A DNA stretch of 64,000 nt from an uncultured Candidatus Saccharibacteria bacterium (GTDB lineage Bacteria; Patescibacteriota; Saccharimonadia; Saccharimonadales; Saccharimonadaceae), in assembly GCA_927910745.1 (NCBI GenBank), contig CAKMNX010000028.1, positions 11,653 to 75,652 of the forward strand, given 5' to 3'. The translations under genes and the position numbers were made by a program. The notes under the pieces are model-generated. The model searched no databases. It was not told the DNA's origin and worked only from the letters and a program-made list of their open reading frames with translations. Of this stretch, positions 16,372 through 53,448 are shown one piece after another. Position 1 is the first letter of the stretch. Every line of letters starts with the position of its first letter.

Positions 16372-16523
16372 AAACGAAGAAACAACTGTTAGGTTCATAG
16401 ACACAACCCAACCTACTTAATGGAAGAACTAGGACGAATATCGCGCGAGTCATAAAATAGGGGTAGAGACCAAAGACCAAGGCAACGAGTCCAGAGTCGA
16501 CACCAGAGGAGTAAAAATAAAGC

Positions 16524-17138
16524 ATGGATATCGAAAACCACTACAGAAACGACACTCCGTTTACCCGGGCAATCATCCTCCATGGGCGGCGAAGCTTTGA
16601 CAAATATCACAACCCTACGGTTGATAGTACAAGCAACTCACATTGGCTGCCTTGGCTTCAGCAACAACTCTTGATACGTGGGATACTGACGCAAACACCC
16701 GAGATGCCTCGCCCATACGAGCCACGCTATGAGGTGTGGCGCCAAGAATTTACCCATCTGCCAGTGGATGAGCGTACGCTGCTAGTAGGCCATAGCTGTG
16801 GTGGAGGTTTTTTGCTTCGCTGGCTGAGTGAGGGAAATTACCGTGTTGGCCGGGTCGTACTGGTGGCACCGTGGCTGGATGTTGAGGGAGAGGCAGGAGA
16901 TTTCTTTCGCTTTGCACTCGACCGCGAGATTGACCGCAAAGCAGTGCACGGCATTGATGTGCTCTACTCTACTAATGACTACCCACATCTACAAAGCTCC
17001 ACGGCAAAGCTCCGCCGTGAGCTACCCCAGCTACGCTACCATCGATTTGTCAACCATGGTCATTTTACCTTCAGCACGATGCGGACGCGAGCGTTTCCAG
17101 AGCTGGTAGAGATTTGTTTAAGAGAGGAGAAGAAATGA
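16524..17138 (+). CDS. alpha/beta serine hydrolase (RBBP9/YdeN-like)
   Basis: GHSCGG nucleophile elbow, plus conserved D and H (NHGHF) positions. Confidence 0.55.
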   Translation: MDIENHYRNDTPFTRAIILHGRRSFDKYHNPTVDSTSNSHWLPWLQQQLLIRGILTQTPEMPRPYEPRYEVWRQEFTHLPVDERTLLVGHSCGGGFLLRWLSEGNYRVGRVVLVAPWLDVEGEAGDFFRFALDREIDRKAVHGIDVLYSTNDYPHLQSSTAKLRRELPQLRYHRFVNHGHFTFSTMRTRAFPELVEICLREEKK

Positions 17139-23516: not shown

Positions 23517-23517
23517 G

Positions 23518-25298
23518 TTATTCCTTTGTGACGCGGAGCACTTCTTCTACAGTGGTGTTGCCGCGGATTGCTTTTATTAATCCATCGGTGAGCATGGTGG
23601 TCATCCCCTCGGCGACGGCTTGGTCTTGGATTTCGTTGCTGGTATTGCCGCCGATAATCATCTTTTGGATTTCGCGCGAAGTGCCGAGGACTTCGTAGAT
23701 ACCTACCCGGCCTTTGAAGCCGGTGTGATTACACTCATCGCAGCCATTTGGGTTTGGTTGCCAGAGGGTAGCGATGGTCGTGTCTGTCGTGCCCCAGGGT
23801 GTTTCACCACCGACCTTTTGGACGATAGCCTGGGCCTCAAGCTGATGGATGTAATAGAAATTTTGGCCCGGTGCAAGGTGAAAGAGGCGAGTGATCTCTG
23901 CAACCTCTGTTTGGTCGGGCACGTAACTCTGGCGGCAGTTCATACAGAGGCGACGCACCAGGCGCTGGCCTACCACGGCCTTAACGGTACTGGCGATAAG
24001 GAAGGGCTCGATCCCCATATCAAGCAGGCGTGGCAAACAAGTGGCGGCGTTATTGGTGTGGAGTGTACTAAATACCAAGTGGCCCGTTAGGGCAGCCTGG
24101 ACGCCAAGGTTAGCTGTCTCGCCGTCGCGGATCTCACCCACCATAATAATGTTTGGGTCTTGACGCAGCAGAGCGCGCAAACCACTGGCGAAAGTCATGC
24201 CAGCCTTGCTATTGGTTTGGGTTTGGTTGACGCCGGGGATCTTATACTCCACGGGGTCCTCAATAGTTGAGATATTGACCTCGGGCGTGTTAAGCATCGA
24301 CAGGACGGAGAAGAGCGAGGTAGACTTGCCACTCCCGGTCGGCCCGTCACGAGGATCATCCCATTGGGCTCGGTCAGTGCTTGATTGATAACAGCCAGCG
24401 AATGGCCCCAGTAGCCGAGCTGTTCGAGCGTCACTGCTTGGTTCGATTCGTCGAGGATACGCATCACCACCTTCTCACCATCAGCGATGGGTAGCGTGCT
24501 AACACGCAGGGCATACTGCTTGCCTGCGACTTTGATCTTAAAGCGACCGTCTTGCGGTACGCGGCGTTCGTCTATCTTAAGGTTGGAGAGGATCTTAATG
24601 CGGCTTATGAGCGCACCGAGCACATTCTTAGGTAGGCGGTTTACTTCCTTAAGGACGCCATCAATCCGGTAGCGCACCTGCACGAATTGCTCGCGTGGCT
24701 CGATGTGGATATCGCTGGCGTTGCTGCGGATGGCATACTCTAGTAACAGATTAACCGTCTGGGCGATTGGTGAGTCTTCTGCTACCTCTGCTTCGGTCAC
24801 CTTTTGGTTAGAGCCATCATCCTCACGCTGGATGTCGATCACCTCCTTGAGTTCCTGCGTCACATCGCCGCGGTATCCCTCAAGACACTCTAAGATGTTA
24901 CTGCGCGGCGCAATGTAGACACGGGTGTTGGTGCCAATTTCCTTCTCGATAAAGTTGACGGCTTGCACATCGTCTGGGTCGTCCATCGCGAGGTGGATGA
25001 GTCCATCAGGGTCGATCTTGAAGATGACAGCATTATACTGGCGGGCGATTCGCTCGGGGATGCGCATGAGGATATCAGAAGGGATATCGCGCGGATCGGG
25101 CTCGATGTAGGGGATGTCGGCGTAGGTGGCATAGAGCTTGGTGAGGGTACGCTCATCGATGAGGTTGTTTTGCAAGACGATATCTTGCAGGCGCAAATTA
25201 GATGACGCAGCCTCACTCACCAGTGGCTGGAGCTGCTGGCTGGTGGCAGCGCCACTGCGTTCGAGGAGTTTGACGATAGTAGAATCAGATATATGCAT
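23518..25298 (-). pseudogene. pilB: type IV pilus extension ATPase PilB (GspE family), with a 1-nt deletion inside the Walker A codons at about 24341
   Basis: The N half ends ...[13 protein letters not shown]... in the wrong frame. Restoring one C gives [38 protein letters not shown], which joins the C half (23518-24297) in frame. Confidence 0.8.
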
Positions 25299-32376: not shown

Positions 32377-32453
32377 CGGGGTGTGGCGCAGCTTGGTAGC
32401 GCGCACCGTTCGGGACGGTGAGGTCGCTGGTTCAAATCCAGTCACCCCGACCA
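32377..32453 (+). tRNA. tRNA-Pro (anticodon CGG)
   Basis: C1:G72 acceptor pair cggggtg/caccccg, anticodon loop ttcggga, and an encoded CCA. Confidence 0.85.
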
Positions 32454-32500
32454 TGTTTTGCTCCGGCAAAGAATGGTCGCCCGTGTGATATAAAACGTAT

Positions 32501-32576
32501 CGGGGTGTGGCGCAGTTGATAGCGCGCGCGGTTTGGGACCGCGAGGTCGCTGGTTTGAGTCCAGTCACCCCGACCA
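32501..32576 (+). tRNA. tRNA-Pro (anticodon UGG)
   Basis: Same acceptor stem as the first tRNA-Pro, anticodon loop tttggga, and an encoded CCA. Confidence 0.85.
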
Positions 32577-32592
32577 TATTTGTGAATTGTTT

Positions 32593-32623
32593 GATCTGGC
32601 TTGCGTGGCCAGATCATTTTTAA
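32593..32623 (+). terminator. rho-independent terminator after tRNA-Pro
   Basis: Hairpin gatctggc-ttgcgtg-gccagatc followed by atttttaa. Confidence 0.55.
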
Positions 32624-32896
32624 TAGATGTACGATGTTTAATCTGAATAGGAGATGTGGGTTGAGCTATCTTGACTAAACTGAATATCTTCCCGTGTACT
32701 ATAGAACGCGGCGTTTTGTTACAGTGACGTCGACTGAGATAGGAACGATGAGATCGCATGAGTTTACAGAATATAGAGTGAAATAGGAGAAAGCAAAGAA
32801 AAAACTAAAGAATAATCACCCCAAATAAAATCCTGTTGACGAATATTATAAATCTAACTTATAATAAGTACACATACAATAAAAGGAGAAAGTATA

Positions 32897-33286
32897 ATGG
32901 AATTTAGCTTTAGTTTAAAAATCAAAGCAGGAAAAGAAGATGTGTGGGAATACTATGCAAATATCGAAAAATGGTATGATTGGGAAGAGGATCTCAAAAA
33001 CATTACATTAAAAGATGGATTTAAGACTGGCTCATATGGAACGATGGAACTTGAGGGAATGCCTCCTATGGAATATCAACTTACTCGTGTGAAGCCTTTT
33101 GAAGAATTTTGGGATAAAACAGAAACTCCGTTTGGTGATGTTCTTTTCGGTCATCAGATTGTTGATAACAATGACGGAAGCGTTAATATAAAACATACGG
33201 TAGCTCTCGATAGTGAGGATAAGCAGCATTTGGAGTTTTTTAAGTCAGGTTTTTTCAGATGTTCCTCAGTCTATTGTTTATTCTAA
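32897..33286 (+). CDS. SRPBCC (Bet v1/polyketide-cyclase-like) family protein
   Basis: RBS aaaggagaaag precedes the ATG. 129-aa AT-rich ORF. The fold assignment is tentative. Confidence 0.4.
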   Translation: MEFSFSLKIKAGKEDVWEYYANIEKWYDWEEDLKNITLKDGFKTGSYGTMELEGMPPMEYQLTRVKPFEEFWDKTETPFGDVLFGHQIVDNNDGSVNIKHTVALDSEDKQHLEFFKSGFFRCSSVYCLF

Positions 33287-33372
33287 AAAGTTGTTTAGAA
33301 CGATAAGGTGGTTGCTGTTTGTTTACGTCAAAGTATAAAGATAATTCAGAAAAATCAACAGGATTGCTGTTT

Positions 33373-33762
33373 ATGAGAGTGTATAATAAATGGCACTTTC
33401 TGACAAAAAAGGAGTTAAAGAGAATAAATCTGACGCACCCTCAATTTGTTGTTTTAGCGTCTCTTGCGTATCTATCACAAAATGGCGACGAAGTTACACA
33501 AGTTATGATTTCAAAACTCTCAGGAATAGACGTAATGACGGTATCTCAAATATTGAGTTTGTTGGAAAAGCATGATTTTGTAAAAAGAAAAGAACATTCA
33601 AGAGACACAAGAGCAAAGGCTGTTACTGTGAATAAAAAAGGAGAAGAAGTATTGCAAAAAGCTGTTCCGTTAATTGAGCAGATTGATGAATTATTCTTTG
33701 GAAAGTTGGCTAGTGACGAAGAGCAATTTAAACACTTTCTTAGTAGATTAAATGAAAAATAA
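33373..33762 (+). CDS. MarR family transcriptional regulator
   Basis: Winged helix-turn-helix: LTHPQFVVLASLAYL...ISKLSGIDVMTVSQILSLLEKHDFVKR...DTRAKAVTV. Confidence 0.7.
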   Translation: MRVYNKWHFLTKKELKRINLTHPQFVVLASLAYLSQNGDEVTQVMISKLSGIDVMTVSQILSLLEKHDFVKRKEHSRDTRAKAVTVNKKGEEVLQKAVPLIEQIDELFFGKLASDEEQFKHFLSRLNEK

Positions 33763-33824
33763 AATGTAGTAGAATTACGCACCATAGCATCAGTTTATGC
33801 TGTCGTGTATAATGACCAGTAGTT

Positions 33825-34478
33825 ATGGTAGCGCAGTCTTCTCATCCAGCAAAGTCGAAGGAGCAGCCCAAGCAGCCACAGCCGCGGCGGTTTGCGCTTT
33901 TGGTGACGCATTTATGCGCGTCGATGGGGTATCTCTTTTGCTTGCTGCTGTGGGTGTGGTGTGCAATGCAGCTGCTTTACCCATATATCACGCGAGATAA
34001 GGCGCTTTGGGTTATACCGGAGCCGCACGGCCAGCCAGAGATCACGCTTCCACAGGGCATGCCTTCAGGGGCGGACTTGCCGCAGCCAGTAGCGATTGCA
34101 CTCGTGGCAATCATCACCATCGTTATGATTGGGTGTGGCCTCTATATGCTGGTCATGCTACCGCGCAATATAGCTAAAATAGGCGAGCGCGTAGTAAAAA
34201 AGACAACGAAAGCAGTTGCACCCTTAGCGACGAAAACCCACCAGCCAGTGAGCAAGAAGCGGCGCACCATCCTCAATACGCGCATTGCGGCAGGCATTAA
34301 GGCGCTGGCTTGTGTCGTGCCGGTGATTGTCCTAATGATCTGGCCAGGTGCGGCACCACTGTCGCAGCATGTGGTACGGATCGTTGCAGTGTTTTGTGCA
34401 GGCATGGCATCCTTGAGCTTCTTGCTCCAGTATGCGCTAGCACGGATGCTTGGCGTGCCTGATACACTCCTCAAGTAA
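33825..34478 (+). CDS. hypothetical membrane protein
   Basis: Four predicted TM helices. No recognisable family. Confidence 0.4.
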   Translation: MVAQSSHPAKSKEQPKQPQPRRFALLVTHLCASMGYLFCLLLWVWCAMQLLYPYITRDKALWVIPEPHGQPEITLPQGMPSGADLPQPVAIALVAIITIVMIGCGLYMLVMLPRNIAKIGERVVKKTTKAVAPLATKTHQPVSKKRRTILNTRIAAGIKALACVVPVIVLMIWPGAAPLSQHVVRIVAVFCAGMASLSFLLQYALARMLGVPDTLLK

Positions 34479-37073: not shown

Positions 37074-37847
37074 CTACTTCAACCCACGAAAAGTACTTGA
37101 TTTGACGTTATCATACATCGCGTTGTCTTGAAGGAGTTTCTTCATCGTTTTCACATCGTCGGGCTGTCCTGCCACGAGATATTGAGCCTTGTTGCCATGT
37201 CTATCAATCGCCTGCTTGAAGCGTTCTTGGCTTTGAGAAAGGCTAGCACTGGTCTCATAAGTCATATTGGCTGTTTTGTTTGCTAGCTCTGAGAGTTCCT
37301 TGTCAAAGACCGTTACCCCCTTGTCTAGGTGATAGAGCATGATAGGACGTTTACCGGCCCACTGCCTGACAATTGGTCGCATTGCTGAGATACCGACATC
37401 AGACGCGAAGCAAACCAGCGGCTCGTTACCGTCTGTAACTGACAAAGAAGATTCCAGCCAACTCATCTTGACCTGACTACCTGCTGGTAGGCTCGTCAAA
37501 GCTTTTTTATAAGGACTACCGCTATTGTGGGTTAGGATAATAATTTCATTATCCTCAGGACTAGAGGCGATACTCAGCCAACGACTTGTCTGTTCATCCT
37601 TATGATCATTCTTTTCACCACCAGATGCCGTACTGGGTAGCGTGATCTTGGCATAAGAGCCCGCCTTCCATGTCATAGTATCAGGCTTTGCCAGGCGAAT
37701 GACATGAAGGTCTCCACTAGGGTTTTCGATGGATTTGACCGATAACGTTTGGCCTCTCCCTAAGTAGGCGATGATGCCCCAAGTAATAATGCCTATAACC
37801 ACAAGAATAGCTATAACGATGATAACCATTTTTTTACCCCTTTTCAT
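37074..37847 (-). CDS. membrane-anchored FNR-like FAD/NAD(P)-binding oxidoreductase
   Basis: N-terminal TM helix. RWLSIASSP resembles the RxYS FAD-binding motif of ferredoxin-NADP reductase-like proteins. Confidence 0.4.
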   Translation of the reverse strand: MKRGKKMVIIVIAILVVIGIITWGIIAYLGRGQTLSVKSIENPSGDLHVIRLAKPDTMTWKAGSYAKITLPSTASGGEKNDHKDEQTSRWLSIASSPEDNEIIILTHNSGSPYKKALTSLPAGSQVKMSWLESSLSVTDGNEPLVCFASDVGISAMRPIVRQWAGKRPIMLYHLDKGVTVFDKELSELANKTANMTYETSASLSQSQERFKQAIDRHGNKAQYLVAGQPDDVKTMKKLLQDNAMYDNVKSSTFRGLK

Positions 37848-38427
37848 TATGTAAAACACCCCTCGCAAAGGTAGTGGCAAGTACTTCTAGCGTCCTACCG
37901 ATACCCGGAAAATCGCCTTCGGTAATATGTATATCCATGTAGTAAAACAAATTATAAACCTGTAAAATATCCTGAATTTTTTCCTCTGAATATCCTTCTG
38001 CCACCATACGATTAGTAAAGGTTTCGACCAAAAACTGATGAAAGGTATTGGTGGCTTTACCTTTGCCCGAAGAATAGTGGCTGCGCAGCGTGCGAGAGAT
38101 GGCTGGGTTATGCCATTCCGCCAGGATTTTATTGGATGAAACCAGGCTACGTGACTGTTCAAAAATCTGCCTCACAAGTTCAACCAAGTCCTGCTGCCAA
38201 TCGATATCATCCATCATCGCCTGGCGAACGCGGCTATTCTCCTCAACGTACACATCCAGGAAGATAGCTTCCTTGCTGTCGTAGTAGTTGTAAAAAGAAC
38301 CAACTGCTACGCCAGCTTGTTTAGCGATTTCTGAGATCCCGGCCTCTTTATAACCCTTTTTTGAGAAGACATCATAGGCGGCCGTTTTTAATGCTTGCTT
38401 CTTGTCCAATGCTCGTAACTCTCTCAT
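37834..38427 (-). CDS. TetR/AcrR family transcriptional regulator
   Basis: HTH region ...AAYDVFSKKGYKEAGISEIAKQAGVAVGSFYNYYDSKEAIF. Confidence 0.75.
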   Translation of the reverse strand: MRELRALDKKQALKTAAYDVFSKKGYKEAGISEIAKQAGVAVGSFYNYYDSKEAIFLDVYVEENSRVRQAMMDDIDWQQDLVELVRQIFEQSRSLVSSNKILAEWHNPAISRTLRSHYSSGKGKATNTFHQFLVETFTNRMVAEGYSEEKIQDILQVYNLFYYMDIHITEGDFPGIGRTLEVLATTFARGVLHNEKG

Positions 38428-38559
38428 TAATAATATTCTGAATGAATAAATTTTTATATTCATTCATATTATATGAAAACAACAAGAAGGCTGTCAATAG
38501 AGGGATCTGCTTGATTATTCTTTTCGATTGTCAACCCGATTGACGAGGCTATCTAATTG

Positions 38560-39189
38560 TCATTGGCTCTGTACCTTATCCACCAGCTTCGTTAGCTTCA
38601 CGCCATCGTACATCCAGTGGTCGGCGCCGCGGTATGCGCCGGAGTTGTTGACTTCGCCGCGCTGGGTGTAGATCAGGCGGGTGAGGGCAGATAGACGCCA
38701 GGTTTTGCCGCCGTAGGATGCTTCGCGTGGGCCGGCTACAACGGCGGTGATAGCTGGGTCTTTGATGAAGCAGATGGTTGCGCCCTTTTCGATACCTTTT
38801 TTGTAAAAGCTAAAGCGCTGGTCTTGCTGGTGCGCGGTGGTAACGGCCTCGAACGAATCGGCTTTGCTGGTGGATTGAGCTGGCTTGGGGTAAATCTGCG
38901 TGCCATCAAGGGCGAGCAGCAGCCGCTGGATAAGATATTCATCGAGCGCAAAGAATTCGCTCCGGCCAATGCGGTGTTTGCTAAAGACTTCGTGCAGAAG
39001 CTGCTCCTTTTTGTGGTAATTATCTACCTCAATAGCAACCAGCCGCTGCAGCCCAGTAATATTAGAATAGCCGTTGGATTCGAGGTATTGCATACGCGCC
39101 TCGAAGCGGTCGGTGCTGGTCTTGCCAATCTTGACCAAGCCATCAATGGCACTGGTCATAACATAAATCACTCCGCGTGGCTCGGACAT
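38560..39189 (-). CDS. T5orf172 (GIY-YIG-like) + DUF4357 domain protein
   Basis: [20 protein letters not shown]...RMQYL is the T5orf172/MUG113 signature. It is followed by the conserved C-terminal domain usually paired with it near R-M loci. Confidence 0.5.
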
Positions 39190-39290
39190 GGTTTTATTGT
39201 AGCAGACTGTGGGGTGGGGGAACAACCGACGACGATAAGGTGCTCAAACCAGCCTCGTTAATCAGGCTTGCTTGCAGTATAATGAGGGGC

Positions 39291-40876
39291 ATGACAACAG
39301 GGGATAATCGTAAAGAACAAGAACGCAGCAAGCTTCACAATACTATTTGGAAGATTGCCAATGACCTGCGCGGATCAGTCGACGGCTGGGACTTTAAGTC
39401 GTATGTGCTAGGCTTCTTATTTTACCGGTTTATATCGGAAAATCTAGTCAATTATATTAATGCTGAAGAGCGTAAAACTGGTGTGGCTGATTTTAATTAT
39501 GCTGAACTGAGCGATGATCAGGCGGAGTTTGGTCGTGAGGATACAGTAAACGACAAAGGATTTTATATTTTACCAAGCGAGCTGTTTGAGAATGTCCGTA
39601 AGCGCGCCAAAAATGACGAAAATTTGAACGAAACACTCAGTAAAATATTCCGTAACATTGAGCAATCAGCCAAAGGTTTTGAGAGTGAGGATGATTTTCG
39701 CGGGTTGTTTGACGACTTGGACGTTAATAGCAATAAACTTGGTCCGACCGTCGCCAGGCGCAATGAGCGATTAGTGAAATTGATGAACGCCATTAGTGAA
39801 TTAGAGCTCGGTAAGTTTGAGGACAATACGATTGACGCTTTTGGCGACGCATATGAGTATCTGATGACCATGTATGCCGGTAATGCTGGCAAATCCGGAG
39901 GTGAGTTCTTCACGCCGCAAGAAGTGAGCGAACTTTTGGCAAAAATTACTGTTGTTGGCAAAACCTCGGTAAACAAAGTGTATGACCCGGCAGCAGGCTC
40001 CGGTTCATTGCTGCTAAAATTTGCGAAAGTCTTGGGCAAGGATAATGTCAGGCAAGGCTTTTACGGGCAAGAGATTAACATCACAACCTATAATCTTTGC
40101 CGTATCAACATGTTCCTGCATGACATTAATTATGAAAAATTTAACATTGCTCACGGCGATACGCTGAAGGATCCGAAGCACTGGGATGATGAGCCGTTTG
40201 ATGCGATTGTCTCAAATCCGCCATATAGTATCAATGGGACGGCGATAGCAACCCGATGCTCATTAACGATCCGCGCTTCAGCCCGGCTGGAGTATTGGCG
40301 CCGCGCAGTAAGGCTGATTTAGCATTCACAATGCATATGTTGAGCTGGCTCAGCGAGAGCGGTACGGCAGCGATTGTTGAATTTCCTGGTGCACTATATC
40401 GCGGTGGGGCTGAGGTAAAAATTCGCAAATACCTGGTAGATAGTAATTATGTTGATACCGTCATCCAATTGCCGCCAGATTTGTTCTTTGGTACGACAAT
40501 TAGCACCTGTATTCTTGTTTTGAAAAAGAGCAGGGCGATGAACGATATATTATTTATCGATGCCAGCGCTGAGTTTGTGCGAAAAGGCAATAAGAACAAG
40601 TTGAGCGAGGAAAATCGTCAGAAGATCCTGGACAGTTTCACTGATCGGCAAAATATCGACTACTTTGCGAAAGTTGCTACTTATGAAGATGTCGCCGCCA
40701 ATGACTACAACCTATCAGTTAGTTTGTATGTTGAGGCGGAAGATACACAAGAAGTAATTGATATCACTGAGCTCAATGCTGACATTGCAAAGATCGTAGC
40801 TCGCCAGTCGGAACTACGGACGGAAATTGACGCTATAGTTGCAGATCTCGAAAAGGATAATAATAGTGCAAGATAA
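39291..40876 (+). pseudogene. hsdM: type I R-M DNA methyltransferase subunit HsdM, interrupted by a 1-nt deletion at about 40233-40236
   Basis: HsdM N-terminal domain, AdoMet motif ([10 protein letters not shown]) and NPPYS motif. After NPPYS the frame fails. Inserting one base restores [23 protein letters not shown]..., which continues as ORF 40256-40876. Confidence 0.8.
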
Positions 40877-41213
40877 CGGTAATATCGTTGTATATGCTGA
40901 CGATAACGGCAAGCCGCAAGTTGATGTTCGGTTTCAGGATGAGACGGTTTGGCTGACGCAAGCGCAACTGGTTGAGTTATATCAGTCGAGTAAAGCTAAC
41001 GTTAGCGAGCATATAAAAAATATCTTTGACGAGGGTGAACTTGACCGCGCAGCAACTATCCGGAAATTCCGAACAGTTCGAACTGAGGGTGATCGTCAGG
41101 TAGAACGTGAATTAGAATACTATAATCTCGACACTTGCAAACTGAGTACCAAGCAGGCTAAAGAAAAAATGCTAGCTGGGTATCGTAAGTATAAGGCGAA
41201 AAAACTTGAGTAG
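40866..41213 (+). CDS. RhuM-family (COG3943) protein, N-terminal fragment only
   Basis: GTG start overlaps the hsdM stop. IVVYADDNGKPQVDVRFQDETVWLTQAQLVELYQSSKANVSEHIKNIFDEGEL matches the RhuM N-terminus. The ORF stops after 115 aa, so it is truncated. Confidence 0.55.
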   Translation: MQDNGNIVVYADDNGKPQVDVRFQDETVWLTQAQLVELYQSSKANVSEHIKNIFDEGELDRAATIRKFRTVRTEGDRQVERELEYYNLDTCKLSTKQAKEKMLAGYRKYKAKKLE

Positions 41214-41276
41214 CGTGGAAGAGGATTATCTGGAGAATATTAAGAAAACAGCTAAAAAGTTGAAAGGTAAAATAAA

Positions 41277-43507
41277 ATGAGTATTCAGAAAGTAAAAATT
41301 AATTTTGAGCATTGTTATGGCATTCATAAGCTATGCAGCAACTTTGACTTTTCTAAATCTAATATGCAGCTAATTTATGCTCCGAACGGCACTATGAAAA
41401 CGTCTTTTGCAAAAACTTTTAAGGATATGAGTGATCCTAGAGGAAAAACTAAACCTCACGATCAGCTCAATGAAACTTTGCAGCCGACTTGCAAAGTTAT
41501 GGTTGAAGACGACAGCGGAAGTGAGCGACAGATAACACCTGATGAAATTAAGGTCATTAAGTCTTACGATGAATCTGCGTTCAAGTCAGAAGAGGCCATC
41601 CTCACCCTACTAGCTAACAAAGAGATTCGCCAACAATATGTTGATATTTTTAAAGAATTAGACAATGAGAAAAAATCTGCATTAAGTCCCTTAAAAAAGA
41701 TCACTGGCAGTAGTAATTACGAGCAAGAGATAATTGGTGCTTTTTCTGATCCAGGAACCAAAAAACTTTCGATATTTGAAGTTTTGGCTACCATAGTAGA
41801 CGACGTAAAACAGTCAAATAGTACCTTTGATTTTGTTTATAATCATGTATTTGATCCTAAGGGGAAAGTGCGTGACTTTCTAGATGAAAATTATGACTTG
41901 TTGCAAAAATATAGTGAGAAATATAATGAACTGTTATCAAGCTCGCAATTCTTTTCAAACAACGGAGAGCGAGCTTTTGGTACGATTGAAGCAGGCGCTC
42001 TTCGTGATTCAATAAAAGGCGATGAATATTTCGAGTCGGGTCATAAACTCTCGTTAAAGATGAGACTATGGTTGACAGCGCCGATAAACTGTCTGAGATT
42101 ATCGATGATGAGATTAAAAAAGTTTTTGATAATCAAGAAATTAAAGATACTTTTGACAAGATTGACAAGAAGCTACAAGGAAACCAAGAGCTAAGAAATT
42201 TTAAAAAAGTTATAGAGAAAGATAAAACTCTGATTGCCAAACTGACTAATTATAATGAGTTTCGTAAGGAAGTTTGGTATAGCTTTCTAAAACAAGTCGA
42301 GCCTGGGGTCAGTGGTTTAGTTGAAAACTATAATACGAAAAAGCCAGATATTGAGACGATTGTGGCTGCGGCGAATGGCTCTAAGGGCTTGTGGCACGAT
42401 ACTGTAAAAGAGTTTATGACTCGATTTACAGGCTTACCTTTTTCTTTTGGTATTGAAAACATAGGTGATGCTATTTTAGGCAAAGATATGCCGACTATTA
42501 CATACCGTTACGGCAATAAATTAGTAGACCAAAGCGTGCTAACAAAAGACATTCTAAGTCAGGGAGAGCGACGTGCTTTCTATCTATTGAATGTAATATT
42601 TGACATAAAATCACGAGAAAAAGAAAATAAAGAAACTCTATTTATTATAGATGACATTGCCGACTCGTTTGACTATAAGAACAAGTACGCTATTATTCAG
42701 TACTTAAACGACTTAAACAAGAGCGAAAATTTCAAAAGCATTGTTTTAACTCATAATTTTGATTTTTACCGTACACTACAAGAGCGAATACTAGCAAGCG
42801 GTAAACGGGATTATTCGTTTATAGCAGAAAGAAATAATGACGAGATTAGATTATTGCCGGGCGGGAAGAAGGTGATTACCAACCCTTTTAATAAATGGCG
42901 TAATAAATGTAATAGGAAAGAAAAGCTACTTGTTGCCGCCATACCGTTCATACGCGAGCTATATAACTATCAAAAAGGGAATGAATCGCAAGAATATTTA
43001 TTGCTAACACACCTACTTCATGACAAAGAAGCTGACAGTCAAAATAAGATACCAGCTACCTATGATATAAAACTAAGAGATATTGAGTATGTCTTTGATG
43101 GTATGTTGAATGTGCAGTTTAAGTTTCCGAATAAGACTAAAAAAGTTATAGACATTATTTTTAGTGTTGCCGATCAGATCCAGCAAGATCCTCATGACGG
43201 CATAAGCCTAGAGAATAAGATAGTATTGGCTATGGCGACTCGACTCTTGGCAGAGCAAAAAATCCTTATTTATGTAGAGCGTCCGTCAAACATTAGCAAA
43301 AACCAATTCTGGGAATTATACAATGTGTTTCGGAATCAATTTGGAAGTGATGAAACTAAAAAAGGCATATTAGAGGTTCTAGAACAGGTCAATATCATCA
43401 CTCCGGCAAATATCCACATTAATTCATTTATGTACGAGCCAATTATTGACATTGGTATTGATGAGTTAGTTTGTCTATATGATCGAGTAAAGGCTTTGCA
43501 TGAGTAA
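41277..43507 (+). pseudogene. ABC/SMC-like P-loop ATPase (AAA_13/AAA_15-like) embedded in the R-M locus, with an apparent 1-nt frameshift at 42056-42058
   Basis: Walker A (IYAPNGTMKTSF), ABC signature (LSQGERRAF), Walker B (LFIIDDIADSFD) and H-loop (VLTHNF). Two overlapping ORFs are in adjacent frames. A4 in place of A3 would join them. Confidence 0.6.
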
Positions 43508-44649
43508 AATTGACGATTTGATTAAAGAGCTGTGCCCGGATGGGGTGAGGTTTGTTAGAGTTGGCGACGTGGCTGTAATAGGTACAGGCAGATCTGATAG
43601 AAAGGATGCCGTTGAAAATGGCCAATATCCATTTTATGTAAGATCAAAAGTAGTATCTCGAATAGATAGGTACTCATTTGATGAGGAAGCAATTATTATA
43701 CCTGGAGAAGGTGGAGTTGGTGATATATTTCATTATGCGAATGGAAAATATGACCTTCATCAGCGAGCTTATAGAATTGTATTCATAACCAATGAAGTGA
43801 ATACGAAATACGCTCTGTACTATTTTATGAGTCTCTTTAAGAGTTTTATAACCCGAAAAGCGGTGAATGCAACGGTTACATCCATAAGAAAACCAATGAT
43901 AGAGGATTTCCGCATCCCCGTTCCACCTCTTGAGGTTCAAAAAGAGATTGTGCGTGTGCTAGACTCGTTTACAGAGCTAGAAGCAGAGCTAGAAGCAGAG
44001 CTAGAAGCGAGAAAGAAGCAGTACGAATACTATCGTAATGACTTGTTGACATTTGACGATGATGTAATGTGGAGGTCGATGGGTGAGATATGTATTTTTC
44101 AAGGATAGAGTAGCGTCTGATGAGCTTACTGCAGATAATTATGTAGGTGTTGACAATCTTCTTAAAGACAAAAAAGGTAGGACGATATCAAGTTATGTGC
44201 CAGAGTCAGGAATCTGGACAAAATTTGTATCAGGGGATATTCTCATTGGAAACATAAGACCATATTTGCGTAAGATATGGTTGGCGGATATTGAAGGTGG
44301 CACAAATGGTGACGTCTTAGTGTTCCATATTTCAAAAGAATATACGAAAAGAATAACACCTAAATTTCTTTTTCATTGCTTAAGTTCAGAAAGGTTCTTT
44401 ATGTTTATGAATAACACCTCAAGGGGCGCAAAGATGCCTCGCGGAGATAAGAAAGCTATCTTAAACTTTATGATACCGATTCCATCACTATCCGTACAAC
44501 AGCAAACCGTCTCTATCCTTGACAAATTCGAAAAACTTACCAACGATATTTCTGTTGGTTTGCCGGCGGAGATTGAAGCCCGCCGCAAGCAATACGAGTA
44601 TTACCGCAATAAATTACTAACCTTCAAAGAGTTGGAGTGTTCAAAATGA
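43500..44649 (+). pseudogene. hsdS: type I R-M specificity subunit HsdS (two target-recognition domains), frames offset by 1 nt at the T5 run 44095-44099
   Basis: Each half carries a TRD plus a conserved helical spacer ending RKKQYEYYRN(D/K)LLTF. The first ORF already runs into the start of TRD2 (W...GEICIF) before it stops. This argues for one gene with a frameshift rather than two half-genes. Confidence 0.65.
43974..44009 (+). repeat. 3 x 12-bp perfect tandem repeat (gagctagaagca) encoding ELEA x3 in the hsdS central conserved spacer
   Basis: Read directly from the sequence. Confidence 0.9.
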
Positions 44650-47600
44650 AATATGATGTAATTGCTGAAAATAGCGACAGCACCGTCGTCAGTGACTATG
44701 TCTCGCCTTACCAACGGGCGACGAGTTATCAGAGCGAGGCAGAACTAGAGCAGGAATTAATTAAGCAATTGCAGGCGCAGGCGTATGAATATTTGCCGAT
44801 CAAGAGTGAGAGTGATTTAATACGGAATCTGCGCACGCAGTTGGAGAAGCTGAATAATTACACATTTACCGATGCTGAGTGGAAGCGGTTCTTCGCAGAG
44901 CGGATCGCTAATGGCAATGAAGATATTGCTGACAAGACCTTCAAGATTCAGGAAGACAGTACGCAACTATTGCAACGCGATAACGGCGAGGTGATTAATA
45001 TTCGCCTGCTAGATAAAACAAACATTCACAAGAACTGCTTGCAGGTGATCAATCAATACGAGGTGTCGGGTACGCGGGATAACCGTTACGACGTGACGCT
45101 GCTGGTGAATGGTTTGCCGCTGGTGCATATCGAGCTAAAAAGGCGCGGCGTGCCTTTGCAAGAAGCCTTCAATCAGATCAATCGCTATCAGCGGGATAGT
45201 TTTTGGGCGGGTAGCGGGTTGTTTGAACATGTGCAGCTGTTTGTGATTAGTAATGGCACGCATACAAAATACTACAGTAATACGACGCGCTGGCAGCATA
45301 TCAATGAGGCGGGTAAATCAGATTCGCATCGCAGTAAAAAGACCAGCAATAGCTTTGAGTTTACCAGTTGGTGGGCGGATGCTAATAATCGCCCGATTAC
45401 CGATTTGATAGATTTTACGGCGACATTTTTATCTAAGCATACGCTGTTGAATGTGCTGACGAAGTACTGCGTGTTTACCAGCGATAAATTATTGCTGGTG
45501 ATGCGCCCATACCAAATTGTGGCGACTGAGCGTATTTTGAATCGCATCCAGATCGCCACAAATTACAAAAAGCTCGGTACAACTGAGGCTGGCGGTTATG
45601 TGTGGCACACCACAGGTAGCGGTAAGACGTTGACGAGTTTTAAGACGGCACAGCTGGCGAGTAAACTGGACTATATTGATAAGGTGCTTTTCGTGGTTGA
45701 CCGCAAAGACCTCGATTACCAGACGATGAAAGAGTACGATAAGTTTCAGGAGGGTGCAGCGAATAGCAATACCAGTACGCGGGTTCTGACGAGGCAATTG
45801 GGCGATCCAAACGCTAAAATTATCATTACGACCATCCAGAAGCTAGATACATTTATCAAGCGCAATCAAGGACACAAGGCGTTTGATGATCACATAGTTA
45901 TTATCTTTGATGAGTGCCACCGTTCGCAATTTGGCGATATGCATCATGCTATTACCAAAAGTTTTCGTAATTATCATTTGTTTGGCTTTACTGGCACGCC
46001 GATATTTGCTGACAATGCGTCAAGTGGTGGGCGAGTTGATCTACGAACCACCGAGCAGGCGTTTGGTGATAAACTGCATACCTACACCATAGTTGATGCG
46101 ATTACTGACAAGAATGTGTTGCCGTTTCGGATTGACTATATTCGTACGATTCGCGAGGCGGACGAGGTCGATGATCAACAGAAAGTACGAGATATTGATC
46201 GTGAGCAGGCATTGAATGCTCCAGAGCGCATTCGCAATGTTGTGCAATATACCCGTGACCACTTTGACCAAAAGACGATGCGTCATGCTAAATCTTATGC
46301 ATTTACGCGGCTGATGAATGTTCATGAAGTTGCGTCAGCGCGAAATAGAGCGGCGGAAGAGATAAAAGATAAAATTCGGCTGAGCGGATTTAATTCAATT
46401 TTTGCAGTGAGTTCAATTGATACAGCAAAACTTTATTATAACGAGTTTAAACGTCAGCAGGCTGAGCTTCCTGAAGTTAAACGCCTGAAAATCGCTACAA
46501 TTTATAGCTATGGAGCGAACGATCCTGATCTGGAAATGGATGGTATGGATGATGAGAATTCGGAAAATACCGACGGACTAGACATCTCGTCACGTGATTT
46601 TCTGGAGGGCGTAATTCGTGATTATAATGTAACATTTGGCACGAACTATGATGCCAGCTCCGAGCGATTCCAGAATTACTATAAAGACGTGAGTCTGCGG
46701 ATGAAGAATCGAGAGATTGATTTGTTAATCGTGGTGAATATGTTTTTGACAGGGTTTGATGCCACGACGTTGAATACGCTGTGGGTTGATAAAAACTTGC
46801 GGATGCACGGGCTGATTCAGGCGTATTCGCGGACGAATCGTATCCTTAATTCAATTAAAACCTATGGAAATATCGTGACATTTCGTAATTTGGAGAAGGC
46901 GACTAACAAAGCTTTAGCACTCTTTGGCGACAGAGATGCGAAGGGTGTTGTATTGCTGCGGCCTTTCCGGGACTATTATGAGGGCTATGAGGATGCTGGC
47001 AAGAAAACGCCGGGTTATGTTGATTTGATCGCGGAGCTAAAAGATAAATTTCCAGTGGGCGAGATAATTACTGGTGAGCAAGAACAAAAGGAATTTGTGA
47101 AGCTATATGGTGCAATTCTGAGGCTGAAGAATATTCTGTCTAGCTTCGATGAGTTTATTGGCCAAGAGATTTTGAGCCAGCGAGATGTGCAAGATTATCA
47201 CAGCATGTACATTGACCTCTATAATGAACTGCGACCGAAATCTGATGAGAGTAAGGAGAATATCAATGACGATTTGGTGTTTGAGATGGAACTCATCAAG
47301 CAGGTTGAAATAAATATTGATTACATCCTGGAATTGATTCGGCAGTATCATGATAGCCATTTGAATAATAAAGAGATTTTAGTCGATATTGATAAAGCCG
47401 TTAACTCATCTATGGAACTGCGTAATAAAAAGGATTTGATTGAGCAGTTTATCGCCTCACTCACGGTTGATAGCTCAGTATATGGTGACTGGAAGGAGTT
47501 TGTGAAGTCAAGAAAAATCAAAGAGCTAGATCAGATTATTGATGATGAAAAACTAGATAAAAATGCGACATATAGGTTTGTTGAAAATGCTTTTCGCGAC

Positions 47601-47759
47601 GGATATATACAATCAACCGGCACAGGTCTATCGCGGATACTGCCACCAATGTCGCGTTTTGCGCCTAGTGGAGAGCGTAGCAAAAAACGTGAAACAGTGC
47701 TGGAAAAATTGAGAGATTTCTTTGATCGATTCTTTGATGTCTCGAATGAAAGCTTATAG
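44646..47759 (+). CDS. hsdR: type I restriction enzyme R subunit HsdR (intact)
   Basis: N-terminal nuclease region, DEAD-box helicase motifs (TGSGKT, DECHRS) and a C-terminal helical domain. The start overlaps the hsdS stop. Confidence 0.9.
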   Translation: MKYDVIAENSDSTVVSDYVSPYQRATSYQSEAELEQELIKQLQAQAYEYLPIKSESDLIRNLRTQLEKLNNYTFTDAEWKRFFAERIANGNEDIADKTFKIQEDSTQLLQRDNGEVINIRLLDKTNIHKNCLQVINQYEVSGTRDNRYDVTLLVNGLPLVHIELKRRGVPLQEAFNQINRYQRDSFWAGSGLFEHVQLFVISNGTHTKYYSNTTRWQHINEAGKSDSHRSKKTSNSFEFTSWWADANNRPITDLIDFTATFLSKHTLLNVLTKYCVFTSDKLLLVMRPYQIVATERILNRIQIATNYKKLGTTEAGGYVWHTTGSGKTLTSFKTAQLASKLDYIDKVLFVVDRKDLDYQTMKEYDKFQEGAANSNTSTRVLTRQLGDPNAKIIITTIQKLDTFIKRNQGHKAFDDHIVIIFDECHRSQFGDMHHAITKSFRNYHLFGFTGTPIFADNASSGGRVDLRTTEQAFGDKLHTYTIVDAITDKNVLPFRIDYIRTIREADEVDDQQKVRDIDREQALNAPERIRNVVQYTRDHFDQKTMRHAKSYAFTRLMNVHEVASARNRAAEEIKDKIRLSGFNSIFAVSSIDTAKLYYNEFKRQQAELPEVKRLKIATIYSYGANDPDLEMDGMDDENSENTDGLDISSRDFLEGVIRDYNVTFGTNYDASSERFQNYYKDVSLRMKNREIDLLIVVNMFLTGFDATTLNTLWVDKNLRMHGLIQAYSRTNRILNSIKTYGNIVTFRNLEKATNKALALFGDRDAKGVVLLRPFRDYYEGYEDAGKKTPGYVDLIAELKDKFPVGEIITGEQEQKEFVKLYGAILRLKNILSSFDEFIGQEILSQRDVQDYHSMYIDLYNELRPKSDESKENINDDLVFEMELIKQVEINIDYILELIRQYHDSHLNNKEILVDIDKAVNSSMELRNKKDLIEQFIASLTVDSSVYGDWKEFVKSRKIKELDQIIDDEKLDKNATYRFVENAFRDGYIQSTGTGLSRILPPMSRFAPSGERSKKRETVLEKLRDFFDRFFDVSNESL

Positions 47760-47786
47760 AGTGCAGAAATTAGAGGGTTGCATTTC

Positions 47787-48020
47787 ATGAAAATCCCCGC
47801 TCGCATCAAACCCAACTCCCGCCACCGCGAAGAAGTCGTGGTGGGTAGCGACGGCACGTATATCATCTACACCAAGGCGCCAGCGATTGAGGGCCGGGCG
47901 AATGCGGCGGCTATTAAGCTGCTGGCTCAGCATTTTGGCGTAAGTAAAAGCCAGGTTCGACTGTTGCGCGGGGCAACATCAAAACATAAGGTCTTTGATA
48001 TCGATAGTGTAGTTCTATAA
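47787..48020 (+). CDS. DUF167 (YggU) family protein
   Basis: ...TKAPAIEGRANAAAIKLLAQHFGVSKSQVRLLRG matches YggU. Confidence 0.55.
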   Translation: MKIPARIKPNSRHREEVVVGSDGTYIIYTKAPAIEGRANAAAIKLLAQHFGVSKSQVRLLRGATSKHKVFDIDSVVL

Positions 48021-50397: not shown

Positions 50398-53300
50398 ATG
50401 AATACCGTCACCACTTTCATTATTGTTTTTGGCTCGGCTGGCCTTATTCTGATCATCTTGTTTGTTGCCTTCATCGTCTATCGCAACAGTATGCGCGAGG
50501 CTAAGAACTACGAGCGAGGCCTTAAGATGGTGCCGATTCTCATCCACTTGCCACCTGCTAGTGATGATATCGACGGTGGGGGGCGTGACAAGCGTGACCT
50601 CACGGAGGAGGTGCTATCGCAGGCCCAAGTGATGTACAACATCATTGCGAGTACCAGCACCAAGGGCTTTATGAGCCGGATCTATGGGCAGCGCCATGTG
50701 TCATTTGAGATTGTGGCGCGCGAGGGTCTGGTGTATTACTATGCAGTGGTGCCAACAGTGCTGACGGACACAGTGCGCCAGGCAATTGCTGCAGCTTACC
50801 CATCGGCACGGCTCGAGGAGGTGTCGGAGCACTCGGTATTTAGTAAGGTAGGCAAGGCGAGTGGGACGATTGGTGGTGAGTTTACTCTGCGCAAAGAATT
50901 TATTTATCCGATTTCTACCTATATGGAGTCTAAGCGCGATGCGTCGCGGGCGCTGCTCAATGCAGTATCTTCGGCTGGGCGCGAGGATGGGGTGGGAATC
51001 CAATTTTTGATCCGCCCAGCGTATGAGAAATGGACGAAGCGCTCTATCTCGGCTGCCGAGCAGATCGTCAAGAACAAGGGTGAGAAAAAGAGTAGTGGCG
51101 GTAGTGGCCTCTCGGCGCGTGATGTTATGCAGGCACTATGGAAGCCGCCTGAGGCAAGTGACAAGAAGGAATTCCAAGCCGAGAAGCCGCTCAGTGCGGT
51201 GGAGCAGGCTAAAGTTGATGCTATCCAAGAGAAAATTCGCTACCCCGGCTATGAGGTAATGATCCGCGTGGTGGTGTCGTCCAACACGGCGGCGCGCTCA
51301 CAGGTGCTGCTCAAGAATATTGTGGCGGCGTTTGCACTGTTTGATTCGCCGAGCTTTAATGGCTTTAAGTTTAACCTTACTAAGAATGTCGATGAGCTCG
51401 CGACAGCCTTTATCTTCCGATTCTTCCCGCAGGCAAATAGCCGCGATATTCTCAACTCAGTAGAGCTTGCAACCCTCTTCCATTTGCCAGACCAAAATAG
51501 CATTCCTACCTCGCAAGTCAAGCGCCAAATGAGCAAGCAAGTCGATGGCCCAACAGAGGTGATGGAGACGGGGCTATTGCTTGGCTACAATGAGTTCCGT
51601 GGCGTGCGCAAGCCGATTCGCCTGGCTGATAAAGACCGTCGGCGTCACATCCATATCATTGGTCAGACGGGTGTAGGTAAGTCGGTCTTGCAAGAGAACT
51701 TGGCCTACCAGGATATGCTGGCGGGGCGGGGTTTTGCCTTGGTCGATCCGCACGGTGACTTAGCTGAGGCATTGCTCGCCAAGGTACCACGTGATCGGGT
51801 GGAGGATATTGTCTACTTCGACCCAGGTGATATGAGCAACCCGATTGGTCTTAATATGTTTGAGTTCGATCACCCCGACCAAAAGGACTTCTTGGTGCAG
51901 GAGGCGATCAACATGCTGTATGGCTTGTATGACCCAGGCCACACCGGTATCGTTGGGCCACGCCTCGAGCACATCTTCCGTAACTGTGCGTTGCTGCTGA
52001 TGGCTGATCCTGCAGGCGGGACGTTTGTCGACGTACCAAAGCTGCTGGTGGATGAGCAATTTCGTAATGCTAAGCTCAAATACGTGACGGACCGGCAGGT
52101 GCTCGACTTTTGGACGAAGGAGTTCCCAGCCTCGCAGCGCTCTAATGAAGCCGGTGACTTGATTAGCTGGGTGATCTCCAAGTTTGGTCCATTTATTAGC
52201 AACGATGCAATGCGCAATATTATTGGCCAGACTAAGAGTGGCTTCAACTTCCCCGAGATTATGAATAACAACAAGATTTTGCTCGTCAACCTCTCTAAAG
52301 GTAAGATGGGTGATCTCAACTCGAAGCTGCTTGGTATCATCTTCGTCATGAAATTCCAGGCGGCTGCCATGGCTCGGGCCAATATCCCCGAGCACGAGCG
52401 CAAGGACTTCACACTCTACGTTGACGAGTTCCAGAACTTTGCCACCGATAGCTTCGAGACAATCCTCAGTGAGGCGCGTAAGTATCGCTTGAGTTTGGTC
52501 TTGGCCAACCAGTTTATGACACAACTCAAGGAAGAACTGCGCGAGGCGATCCTTGGTAACGTTGGTACAACCATTACCGGCCGAATTGGTACGACTGATG
52601 CTGAGATCATGGTTAAGCGCTATACCCCTGTCTTTACTGCTGAGGACTTGACCAAACTGCCAAACTTCGAGTCCGTCTGTGTGGCGCAGATTAATGGCAC
52701 ACCATCGGCACCATTTAGCATGGCGTGGATTCCGCCAATGGGCGAGCCAAACCAGCAATTGAGCGGTGCTCTCAAGAAACTCTCGGCCGCGAAGTACGGC
52801 CGGCCACGCGACCAAGTGGAGCGCGATATAGCTGCCCGTATTAGTGTGCAACAGCCCAGTCAGCCAGCAGCCGGAGCGGGGCGCCCAGGGGGTGCAGCCG
52901 GAGCTGGCGGTGGGTCGTCCTTCCTGGATGAATGGCTTGCCAAGCGTAAACAGATGAATGCAAAGAAACCGCAATCGGCGGCAGCACCATCGAGCGCGCC
53001 AGCCTCACGGCCCGGTAGCCCGGCTGCTCAACCAGCTCGGCCACAAACTGCACCGGCTTCAGCGCAGCCATTGCGTGCCCAACCAGCCACGCCGCCAGCT
53101 TCTTCGCCCTCTCAGGCGCCACGGCCACAGCCAGCTAGCGCTCCTCGCACTATGCCAAATCCAAGCACGTCATCTCCATCGTCGGCTCAGCCTACTCCAC
53201 CACCGTCACCAGCGGTGCAAGATGCGCTTGATAGAGCACGTCATGCTGCGCGGCCCAATATCCTTGGTGGCCAGCCGGCCGAGGCACGTGCTCAGTCTAC

Positions 53301-53448
53301 TCCACCAGTCGCACCATCACCCGCTCCCGAGCCAGCTATGCCATCGCCAGAAGAGCTAGAGCGTGAAGCTCTGCGTCGCCAAGGCACTCTCAACACCCAT
53401 GGTGACCTGAGCGGCGAGCCACAGGAAGTGTCGATTAAGCTGCATTGA
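50398..53448 (+). CDS. membrane-anchored FtsK/HerA/VirB4-VirD4 superfamily P-loop ATPase (T4SS/conjugation-type)
   Basis: N-terminal TM helix. Walker A HIHIIGQTGVGKS. Walker B LYVDEFQNF. RKYRLSLVLANQFMTQL. A Pro/Ala/Ser-rich tail of about 200 aa follows. Confidence 0.6.
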   Translation: MNTVTTFIIVFGSAGLILIILFVAFIVYRNSMREAKNYERGLKMVPILIHLPPASDDIDGGGRDKRDLTEEVLSQAQVMYNIIASTSTKGFMSRIYGQRHVSFEIVAREGLVYYYAVVPTVLTDTVRQAIAAAYPSARLEEVSEHSVFSKVGKASGTIGGEFTLRKEFIYPISTYMESKRDASRALLNAVSSAGREDGVGIQFLIRPAYEKWTKRSISAAEQIVKNKGEKKSSGGSGLSARDVMQALWKPPEASDKKEFQAEKPLSAVEQAKVDAIQEKIRYPGYEVMIRVVVSSNTAARSQVLLKNIVAAFALFDSPSFNGFKFNLTKNVDELATAFIFRFFPQANSRDILNSVELATLFHLPDQNSIPTSQVKRQMSKQVDGPTEVMETGLLLGYNEFRGVRKPIRLADKDRRRHIHIIGQTGVGKSVLQENLAYQDMLAGRGFALVDPHGDLAEALLAKVPRDRVEDIVYFDPGDMSNPIGLNMFEFDHPDQKDFLVQEAINMLYGLYDPGHTGIVGPRLEHIFRNCALLLMADPAGGTFVDVPKLLVDEQFRNAKLKYVTDRQVLDFWTKEFPASQRSNEAGDLISWVISKFGPFISNDAMRNIIGQTKSGFNFPEIMNNNKILLVNLSKGKMGDLNSKLLGIIFVMKFQAAAMARANIPEHERKDFTLYVDEFQNFATDSFETILSEARKYRLSLVLANQFMTQLKEELREAILGNVGTTITGRIGTTDAEIMVKRYTPVFTAEDLTKLPNFESVCVAQINGTPSAPFSMAWIPPMGEPNQQLSGALKKLSAAKYGRPRDQVERDIAARISVQQPSQPAAGAGRPGGAAGAGGGSSFLDEWLAKRKQMNAKKPQSAAAPSSAPASRPGSPAAQPARPQTAPASAQPLRAQPATPPASSPSQAPRPQPASAPRTMPNPSTSSPSSAQPTPPPSPAVQDALDRARHAARPNILGGQPAEARAQSTPPVAPSPAPEPAMPSPEELEREALRRQGTLNTHGDLSGEPQEVSIKLH

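Follow-up and report, generated by a model that had tools for sequence, protein, structure and literature searches.

A PDC-S46 ATPase and a RhuM remnant carried inside an exchangeable type IC restriction-modification cassette of an oral Candidatus Saccharibacteria genome

RESULTS

Genes of the cassette and their composition

The window analyzed here is a stretch of 64,000 nucleotides of the genome of an uncultured oral Candidatus Saccharibacteria (TM7) bacterium (GenBank assembly GCA_927910745.1, contig CAKMNX010000028.1), and positions are counted from its first letter. Its positions 39225 to 47785 are an 8.6-kb exchangeable type IC restriction-modification (R-M) cassette, in which a remnant of a RhuM gene and a gene for an ABC ATPase of the defense candidate family PDC-S46 lie between hsdM and hsdS. 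A first-pass annotation, made from the letters alone, had read the region as a type I R-M defense island with extra genes between hsdM and hsdS and had given the order as a T5orf172 gene (minus strand), hsdM, RhuM, ATPase, hsdS, and hsdR. Open reading frames (ORFs), Pfam, and PADLOC confirmed this order, and the overall reading is supported. The features are as follows, with lengths in amino acids (aa).

38560 to 39225, minus strand: T5orf172-domain gene, PADLOC candidate PDC-S57 (Pfam and PADLOC); conserved flank of the hotspot
39225 to 47785, plus strand: R-M cassette from hsdM to hsdR, the true extent of the island (homology breakpoints, low GC)
39291 to 40876, plus strand: hsdM, 528 aa if intact (Pfam HsdM_N and two N6_Mtase halves)
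40839 to 41213, plus strand: RhuM remnant (partial Pfam Virulence_RhuM, PADLOC PDC-S05 at the N terminus, alignment)
41277 to 43507, plus strand: ABC ATPase, PADLOC PDC-S46, 743 aa, with a C-terminal domain that may be HEPN-like
43500 to 44649, plus strand: hsdS with two target-recognition domains, 387 aa if intact (Pfam Methylase_S in both pieces)
43972 to 44021, plus strand: 12-bp tandem repeat CAGAGCTAGAAG (TRF), which encodes ELEA and lies in the conserved central part of hsdS
44646 to 47759, plus strand: hsdR, intact (Pfam), 1037 aa if read from the ATG at 44646; the ORF opens at the GTG at 44637
47778 to 48020, plus strand: DUF167/YggU-like gene (Pfam DUF167, E = 9e-19); conserved right flank of the hotspot

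Three of these genes occupy two frames each in the window, namely, hsdM (39177 to 40322 and 40256 to 40876), the ATPase gene (41277 to 42194 and 42068 to 43507), and hsdS (43500 to 44108 and 44083 to 44649).

The GC content of the region is not uniform. It drops to 0.35 to 0.47 over the island, compared to a window background of ~0.52 (range, 0.49 to 0.55), with the minimum of 0.35 at 42 to 43.5 kb, over the ATPase gene. The AT richness that had been ascribed to the whole block therefore stands for positions 39225 to 47785 but not for the T5orf172 gene, whose GC content is ~0.50. Of the double label T5orf172/DUF4357 given to this gene, only the first half was recovered: the protein matches Pfam T5orf172 (E = 1.9e-9), also MUG113, and over its full length PADLOC PDC-S57 (E = 4e-51 and 1e-36), but there was no Pfam match to DUF4357 at E <= 1.

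The restriction genes carry the features of a family C system in HsdM, HsdS, and HsdR alike. HsdM matches HsdM_N (E = 1.9e-20) and both halves of N6_Mtase (E = 1.4e-52 and 2.7e-56), and HsdR matches HSDR_N (E = 3.9e-45), SWI2_SNF2 (E = 3.1e-56), a T1R_D3-like domain (E = 7.3e-60), and EcoR124_C (E = 6.7e-69), as well as ResIII. This domain set of HsdR, including EcoR124_C, identifies the system as type IC (EcoR124-like). The 12-bp repeat of hsdS is present as three full units in the window versus four in four metagenome contigs (12697 to 12758 in contig L001), a difference that may reflect either specificity switching between strains or a collapse of the repeat in the assembly. In EcoR124I and EcoR124II, studied by Price et al. 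in 1989, the number of TAEL repeats reportedly determines how long the spacer of the recognition site is. As a separate observation, contig L002, whose island is otherwise near-identical to that of the window, differs from window positions 43736 to 43919 by fifteen substitutions clustered in the first target-recognition domain of hsdS, which suggests that this domain may have been exchanged or diversified between strains.

Stop and start codons overlap between hsdM and the RhuM remnant, between the ATPase gene and hsdS, and between hsdS and hsdR. Since the genes overlap or nearly abut, we infer that hsdM, the RhuM remnant, the ATPase gene, hsdS, and hsdR would be cotranscribed as a single operon. 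Generic promoter and terminator scans of the region performed no better than on shuffled sequence, and neither a tRNA gene nor a flanking direct repeat was found as a marker at the cassette ends.

Exchange of the cassette among relatives

Relatives were collected by scanning metagenomes with the flanking deacetylase gene, the window proteins were mapped onto the recovered loci, and the DNA was aligned. In a locus of the same species with flanks 92 to 93% identical to the window (L087), homology ends at window position 39224 and resumes at 47786. Between these breakpoints lies an unrelated 8.4-kb type I system, with an HsdR only 28% identical and with AbiZ embedded (15309 to 16598). Locus L086, likewise of the same species and sharing its flanks with the window (L086/L087 flanks, 92 to 94% identical), has yet another unrelated type I system, the third, in which GajA/GajB and an AbiJ-like gene are embedded; its Gabija genes (8010 to 10482) lie downstream of hsdS and adjoin hsdR. 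In a more distant relative (L106), only 638 bp separate the DUF167 and T5orf172 genes. As to whether the stretch of 38.5 to 47.8 kb is absent from relatives, the answer is yes for the cassette, which is replaced (L086 and L087) or absent (L106), but no for the T5orf172 gene, which is retained beside a different R-M cassette in L087 and beside the empty site in L106. On these alignments, the T5orf172 gene is a conserved flank of the hotspot, outside the swapped cassette. On the other side, the DUF167 gene adjoins the variable cassette in most related loci.

The same island occupies the same site in locus L008, where flanks and island are both ~90% identical to the window, and the cassette has therefore long resided in this lineage; its low GC content has been kept despite this. 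Sister islands with a closely related hsdR (91 to 95% identical in protein and 84 to 90% in nucleotides) carry other cargo. The order is hsdM, RhuM, GajA, GajB, hsdS, PrrC, and hsdR in L115 (Gabija at 6998 to 9491) and hsdM, RhuM, PDC-S46, hsdS, PrrC, and hsdR in L006 and L007, while L092 and L120 have a divergent PDC-S46 (29 to 31% identical), hsdS, and hsdR. The PrrC of these islands, 361 to 362 aa long, lies between hsdS and hsdR (L115, 4707 to 5795; L006, 11419 to 12504; L007, 7686 to 8771). That of L115 matches the PADLOC PrrC model at E = 5e-93, and its homologues carry precomputed PF13166 (AAA_13) annotations. The window island has no PrrC, because the stop codon of hsdS overlaps the start of hsdR. 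With full-length RhuM, Gabija, or a true PrrC in the sister islands, the site is a modular defense hotspot. Judged from the homology breakpoints and the composition, the cassette is a horizontally mobile, AT-rich type I R-M defense island in a hotspot between the T5orf172 and DUF167 genes. The chromosomal context of the L006 and L007 islands is different from that of the window.

The ATPase as a member of PDC-S46

The ATPase matches PADLOC PDC-S46 with residues 4 to 741 on model positions 2 to 718 of 719 (E = 1.9e-219, 729 bits) and, on this full-length match, is a member of this already catalogued candidate family. The PDC families are phage defense candidates proposed from "guilt-by-embedding" in BREX, DISARM, and type I R-M systems (Payne et al., bioRxiv 10.1101/2024.01.29.577857). 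The PADLOC PrrC model aligns with residues 376 to 526 (model positions 106 to 242 of 372, E = 7e-11), in the signature and Walker B region. Pfam returned SMC_N only, below threshold, and NCBIfam returned only subthreshold matches to RecF and ABC-transporter models; the AAA_13 and AAA_15 domains that had been suggested earlier had no match in the Pfam search (AAA_13, none at E <= 1).

At E < 1e-30, the family comprises 658 clusters at the 50% identity level, all of ~720 to 750 aa, which are patchily distributed over Patescibacteria, Bacteroidota, Proteobacteria, Firmicutes, and archaea. A conserved partner gene was sought around 80 copies in 80 species-representative genomes and was not found; PDC-S46 thus behaves like a self-sufficient one-gene module, embedded in some loci only. 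In 7 of the 80 genomes, a RadC-like gene lies within three genes upstream of PDC-S46 (4746 to 5390 in L006 and six other loci).

The protein has the attributes of an SMC/Rad50-like ABC ATPase, i.e., Walker A, signature, Walker B, H-loop, and ABC head fold. Across 60 diverse family members, the unusual Walker A motif Y-A-P-N-G-x-M-K-T-S, the LSxGE signature, D460 (Walker B), and H493 (H-loop) are invariant or nearly so. The C-terminal third is conserved as well, with R560, H582, K648, R656, H714, N716, F718, E721, P722, and D725 and a nearly invariant E660. The family architecture is an SMC/Rad50-type ABC head interrupted by a ~290-aa helical insert and followed by an all-helical C-terminal domain; in the AlphaFold2 model of the window ATPase (pLDDT of 82.6), the insert spans residues ~99 to 385 and the all-helical domain residues 537 to 743.

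For comparison by hhalign, a PrrC profile was built from the sister-island PrrC and its PF13166-annotated homologues. The Walker A regions of PDC-S46 and PrrC are homologous (probability of 96%, E = 3e-9), and the region of the signature, Walker B, and H-loop is weakly similar (E = 0.017); an alignment over the whole length anchored at Walker A only and then drifted.

A candidate abortive-infection ATPase-RNase

The two passengers between hsdM and hsdS are a RhuM without its toxin core and PDC-S46, a single-gene defense candidate. In the model that we propose, the C-terminal domain of PDC-S46 would be a divergent HEPN-type RNase that the ATPase head keeps inactive until it senses a phage infection or an attack by the phage on the linked restriction complex. 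Once released, the RNase would shut down translation. The outcome would be an abortive infection, as in PrrC/RloC (PMC1484252, PMC2610378), acting as a second line behind DNA restriction. For the nuclease step, which we infer from the C-terminal domain, our confidence stays slightly short of an even chance. The anticodon-nuclease triad of EcoPrrC is Arg320, Glu324, and His356 (PMC1484252); by eye only, PDC-S46 presents R656-x3-E660 ... H714, and both PDC-S46 and PrrC show R-x3-E ... H-x6-E.

Several results weigh against this model. The hhalign comparison of the C-terminal domain of PDC-S46 with the PrrC nuclease domains was not significant (E = 0.28), and the alignment of 60 members shows no conserved Arg 4 to 6 residues before H582 or H714, as the HEPN Rx4-6H motif (PMC3710099) would have it. 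A 34-member PDC-S46 profile had no match at E <= 1 among all PDB sequences, and a Foldseek search of PDB with the C-terminal model returned no significant hit (best E, 0.7). The top conserved motif, TPENIHxNSFMYEP (residues 709 to 722, positions ~43403 to 43444), is modeled by AlphaFold, both times, as a loop with a pLDDT of only ~47 to 57, perhaps one that belongs to an active site or an interface and becomes ordered only in a complex. Moreover, type I R-M or methyltransferase neighbors were seen for only ~14 to 20 of the 80 copies, so that coupling to restriction is not obligatory. Finally, the name PDC-S46 was found neither in a literature search nor in the examined supplements of the Payne preprint.

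The main rival reading keeps PDC-S46 as a defense or R-M accessory ATPase and takes the C-terminal helical domain as a nonnuclease sensor or adaptor for DNA ends, phage proteins, or HsdM-HsdS. The protein would then act by ATP-driven DNA binding or clamping or by recruiting other factors, as do SMC-like Lamassu, Wadjet, and PtuA. Such a role would fit the head with its long helical insert, which resembles SMC, Rad50, RecN, PtuA, and retron ATPases; the missing Rx4-6H motif and the lack of any significant profile or Foldseek match to a nuclease; and a family of which most members are not linked to R-M and have no conserved partner gene. However, the known SMC-like defense ATPases use a separate or fused effector, and since no partner is conserved here, the C-terminal domain is the only candidate effector. 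In addition, R, H, K, and E residues are invariant in this domain, and HEPN RNases are its best structural matches, although not at a significant level against PDB. We therefore consider the sensor or adaptor reading unlikely, albeit the most serious competitor of the ATPase-RNase model.

Frame breaks in hsdM, the ATPase gene, and hsdS

The first-pass annotation had noted that three of the five forward genes are disrupted in frame and had suggested that the island may be an inactivated remnant. The disruptions are indeed present in the window: one A is lost at 40233 in hsdM (AAA to AA), within the NPPYSIKW motif, one A at 42056 in the ATPase gene (AAAA to AAA), and two bases, a T and an A, at 44100 to 44101 in hsdS. 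All four of these single-base differences are losses in short homopolymers.

A near-identical island was found on five contigs of independent metagenome assemblies (L001 to L005), HMP oral samples included, with an intact set called as hsdM of 528, RhuM remnant of 115, ATPase of 743, hsdS of 387, and hsdR of 1037 aa. The set is complete in L001 and L002, and the shorter contigs hold the parts that they reach; hsdM is intact in L001 to L003, hsdS in L001 to L004, and the 1037-aa hsdR in L001 to L003. All five contigs disagree with the window at each frame-breaking site that they cover. Once corrected, the window ATPase shares 742 of its 743 residues with an intact public protein (P0001) encoded on these contigs. 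An alignment of window and L001 over 17.8 kb has only 3 substitutions but six 1-bp indels, proportions that are typical of read error rather than of decay.

The same defect is found outside the island. The type IV pilus genes, compared over window positions 22300 to 25298 with contig L166, include a pilC (T2SSF, 405 aa) split by the loss of a base in a T run at 23028 and a pilB (T2SSE, 593 aa) split by a loss in a G run at 24341, and both are intact in L166, which points to indel errors throughout the assembly. A small gene is disrupted by extra T's at two sites, 33236 and 33274. With one single-base indel in about every 3.5 kb of the region compared, pilus genes included, such indels are not a property of the island. 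From these comparisons, the frame breaks in hsdM, the ATPase gene, and hsdS are most likely homopolymer errors of the assembly, and the real island is probably functional.

A second rival reading nevertheless takes hsdM, the ATPase gene, and hsdS as real pseudogenes of an inactivated island, for example, under relaxed selection or selection against restriction. Besides the three genes out of frame, it can draw on RhuM, which is truly degraded, on the PrrC of the sister islands, which is missing here, and on an indel density that is roughly doubled in the island relative to the other sequence compared, a difference that is not significant. These points tell against a purely artefactual origin, and the breaks could be real mutations, as the comparison was made between assemblies. 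Against intact genes on near-identical contigs, an excess of indels over substitutions, changes confined to short homopolymers, and the same defect in conserved pilC and pilB, we regard both real mutations and a decayed island as improbable.

Beside these breaks, the comparison of window positions 21398 to 49111 with L166 and L001 showed that the JGI contig is nearly identical, differing by a few substitutions, over ~28.9 to 49.1 kb and ~3% different upstream of 28 kb. On this alignment, the window is a recombination mosaic relative to the JGI contig, with a boundary near 28.5 to 28.9 kb.

The RhuM remnant

The RhuM ORF of the window encodes 124 aa (115 aa as called in the metagenome contigs). 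It had been described as truncated, and a remnant it is, but by an in-frame internal deletion and not by a premature stop: in the alignment, the N-terminal ~97 aa are joined to the last ~25 aa, and the Fic/DOC-like toxin core is therefore lost. Only positions 1 to 28 of 252 of Virulence_RhuM (PF13310) are matched (21.2 bits versus a cutoff of 33.7), and PADLOC PDC-S05 likewise matches at the N terminus only. The deletion is common to L001 to L003, the L008 copy is similarly truncated, and full-length RhuM of 338 to 340 aa stands at the same position in L006, L007, and L115. Judged from its recurrence in independent contigs, the RhuM truncation is real.

Neighboring features

Three further features lie around the cassette. 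To its left, a perfect sigma-70 consensus (TTGACA, 18 nt, TATAAT; 12 of 12) occurs on the minus strand at 38468 to 38497, upstream of a TetR-family gene (37834 to 38463). To its right, a gene at 50398 to 53448, 2.6 kb past the downstream end of the island, encodes a VirD4/TraG-like coupling protein (DUF8128 and TraG-D_C) with a long Pro/Ala/Ser-rich tail. A second low-GC islet (32377 to 34000; GC content, 0.37 to 0.38) lies directly downstream of two tRNA-Pro genes (32377 to 32453 and 32501 to 32576) and contains MarR-type regulators together with the small gene disrupted by the extra T's, which is SRPBCC/Polyketide_cyc2-like.

DISCUSSION

Taken as a whole, the locus is best explained as an exchanged type IC cassette with two passenger genes, of which PDC-S46 would be an abortive-infection ATPase-RNase, and with artefactual frame breaks; we hold this combined explanation with moderate confidence. 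That the ATPase is a housekeeping DNA repair protein of the SMC/RecF/RecN/SbcC type merely located beside an R-M system is extremely improbable, as matches to such families stay far below curated cutoffs while the full-length match is to a defense-candidate family, the gene is embedded in an R-M operon with overlapping stop and start codons, close relatives lack it or have Gabija in its place, it is patchy across phyla in variable contexts without conserved synteny in the 80 genomes, and the GC content is lowest over it.

A bolder proposal, which we put forward tentatively and hold to be less likely than not, is that PDC-S46 could be a third branch of PrrC/RloC-type restriction RNases. An ATPase with a noncanonical P-loop (A-P-N-G-x-M-K-T) would guard the type IC complex, or sense infection independently, and then unleash a divergent HEPN-like nuclease with an active site of R656, E660, H714, and E721 and without Rx4-6H. 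As one module among several, beside Gabija, PrrC, RhuM, and AbiZ, it would be interchangeable on a conserved type IC scaffold in oral Saccharibacteria.

The architecture of the locus, with defense genes embedded in a type I R-M system, is known, and the locus adds a new instance of it. Two points are modestly new: the structural hint that PDC-S46 may be an ABC and HEPN-like protein, and a single Saccharibacteria hotspot that interchanges PDC-S46, Gabija, PrrC, RhuM, and AbiZ within or between type I scaffolds. The locus thereby offers a clean natural example of embedded defense modules swapped inside a conserved type IC scaffold at one chromosomal site, in ultra-small epibiotic hosts whose antiviral systems are little studied. 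A catalogued family gains a concrete and testable hypothesis, in which particular residues are named, that of an ABC ATPase coupled to a HEPN-like effector. There is also a practical lesson, in that it would mislead to annotate the R-M system of this genome as dead.

Among known systems, the restriction genes compare with EcoR124I/EcoR124II. HsdR carries the EcoR124_C domain, and the central region of HsdS repeats a 4-aa unit whose copy number varies (3 versus 4); however, the unit is ELEA rather than TAEL, and additional genes lie between hsdM and hsdS. As for the passengers, ABC-HEPN proteins have been described beside RhuM or DOC toxins in R-M operons and proposed to provide a multilevel defense (Anantharaman et al. 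2013, PMC3710099). The window resembles these operons in its neighborhood, where hsd genes are combined with a RhuM-like gene and with an ABC ATPase whose C terminus may be HEPN-like. The complete form, with a full-length RhuM, is seen in L006 and L007, whereas the RhuM of the window is a coreless remnant.

The first-pass annotation had likened an ATPase between the M and S genes to the arrangement of PrrC-type anticodon nucleases. This likeness does not hold, since the true PrrC of the sister islands lies between hsdS and hsdR. Unlike the PrrC of the type IC system EcoprrI (PMC1484252), of ~360 to 400 aa, the window ATPase has 743 aa, with a ~290-aa helical insert and no Pfam AAA_13 match, and PrrC and PDC-S46 coexist in L006 and L007. 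With RloC (PMC2610378), PDC-S46 shares its overall plan, in which a long helical insert divides the ABC head and a helical domain, the putative effector, follows at the C terminus; like RloC, it is also similar in size and a single gene only sometimes linked to R-M. The insert of RloC is a coiled coil with a CxxC zinc hook (PMC2610378), whereas that of PDC-S46 has no conserved cysteine, the sole invariant one being C13 in the N-terminal strand; PDC-S46 also differs from RloC by the missing AAA_13 match and by a catalytic triad that does not demonstrably align. By the features compared, PDC-S46 is neither PrrC/AAA_13 nor RloC, and it may still work like them. Within its own family, nothing sets the window ATPase apart, and its embedding, as a single gene, in a type I R-M locus is what the definition of the PDC families was built on.

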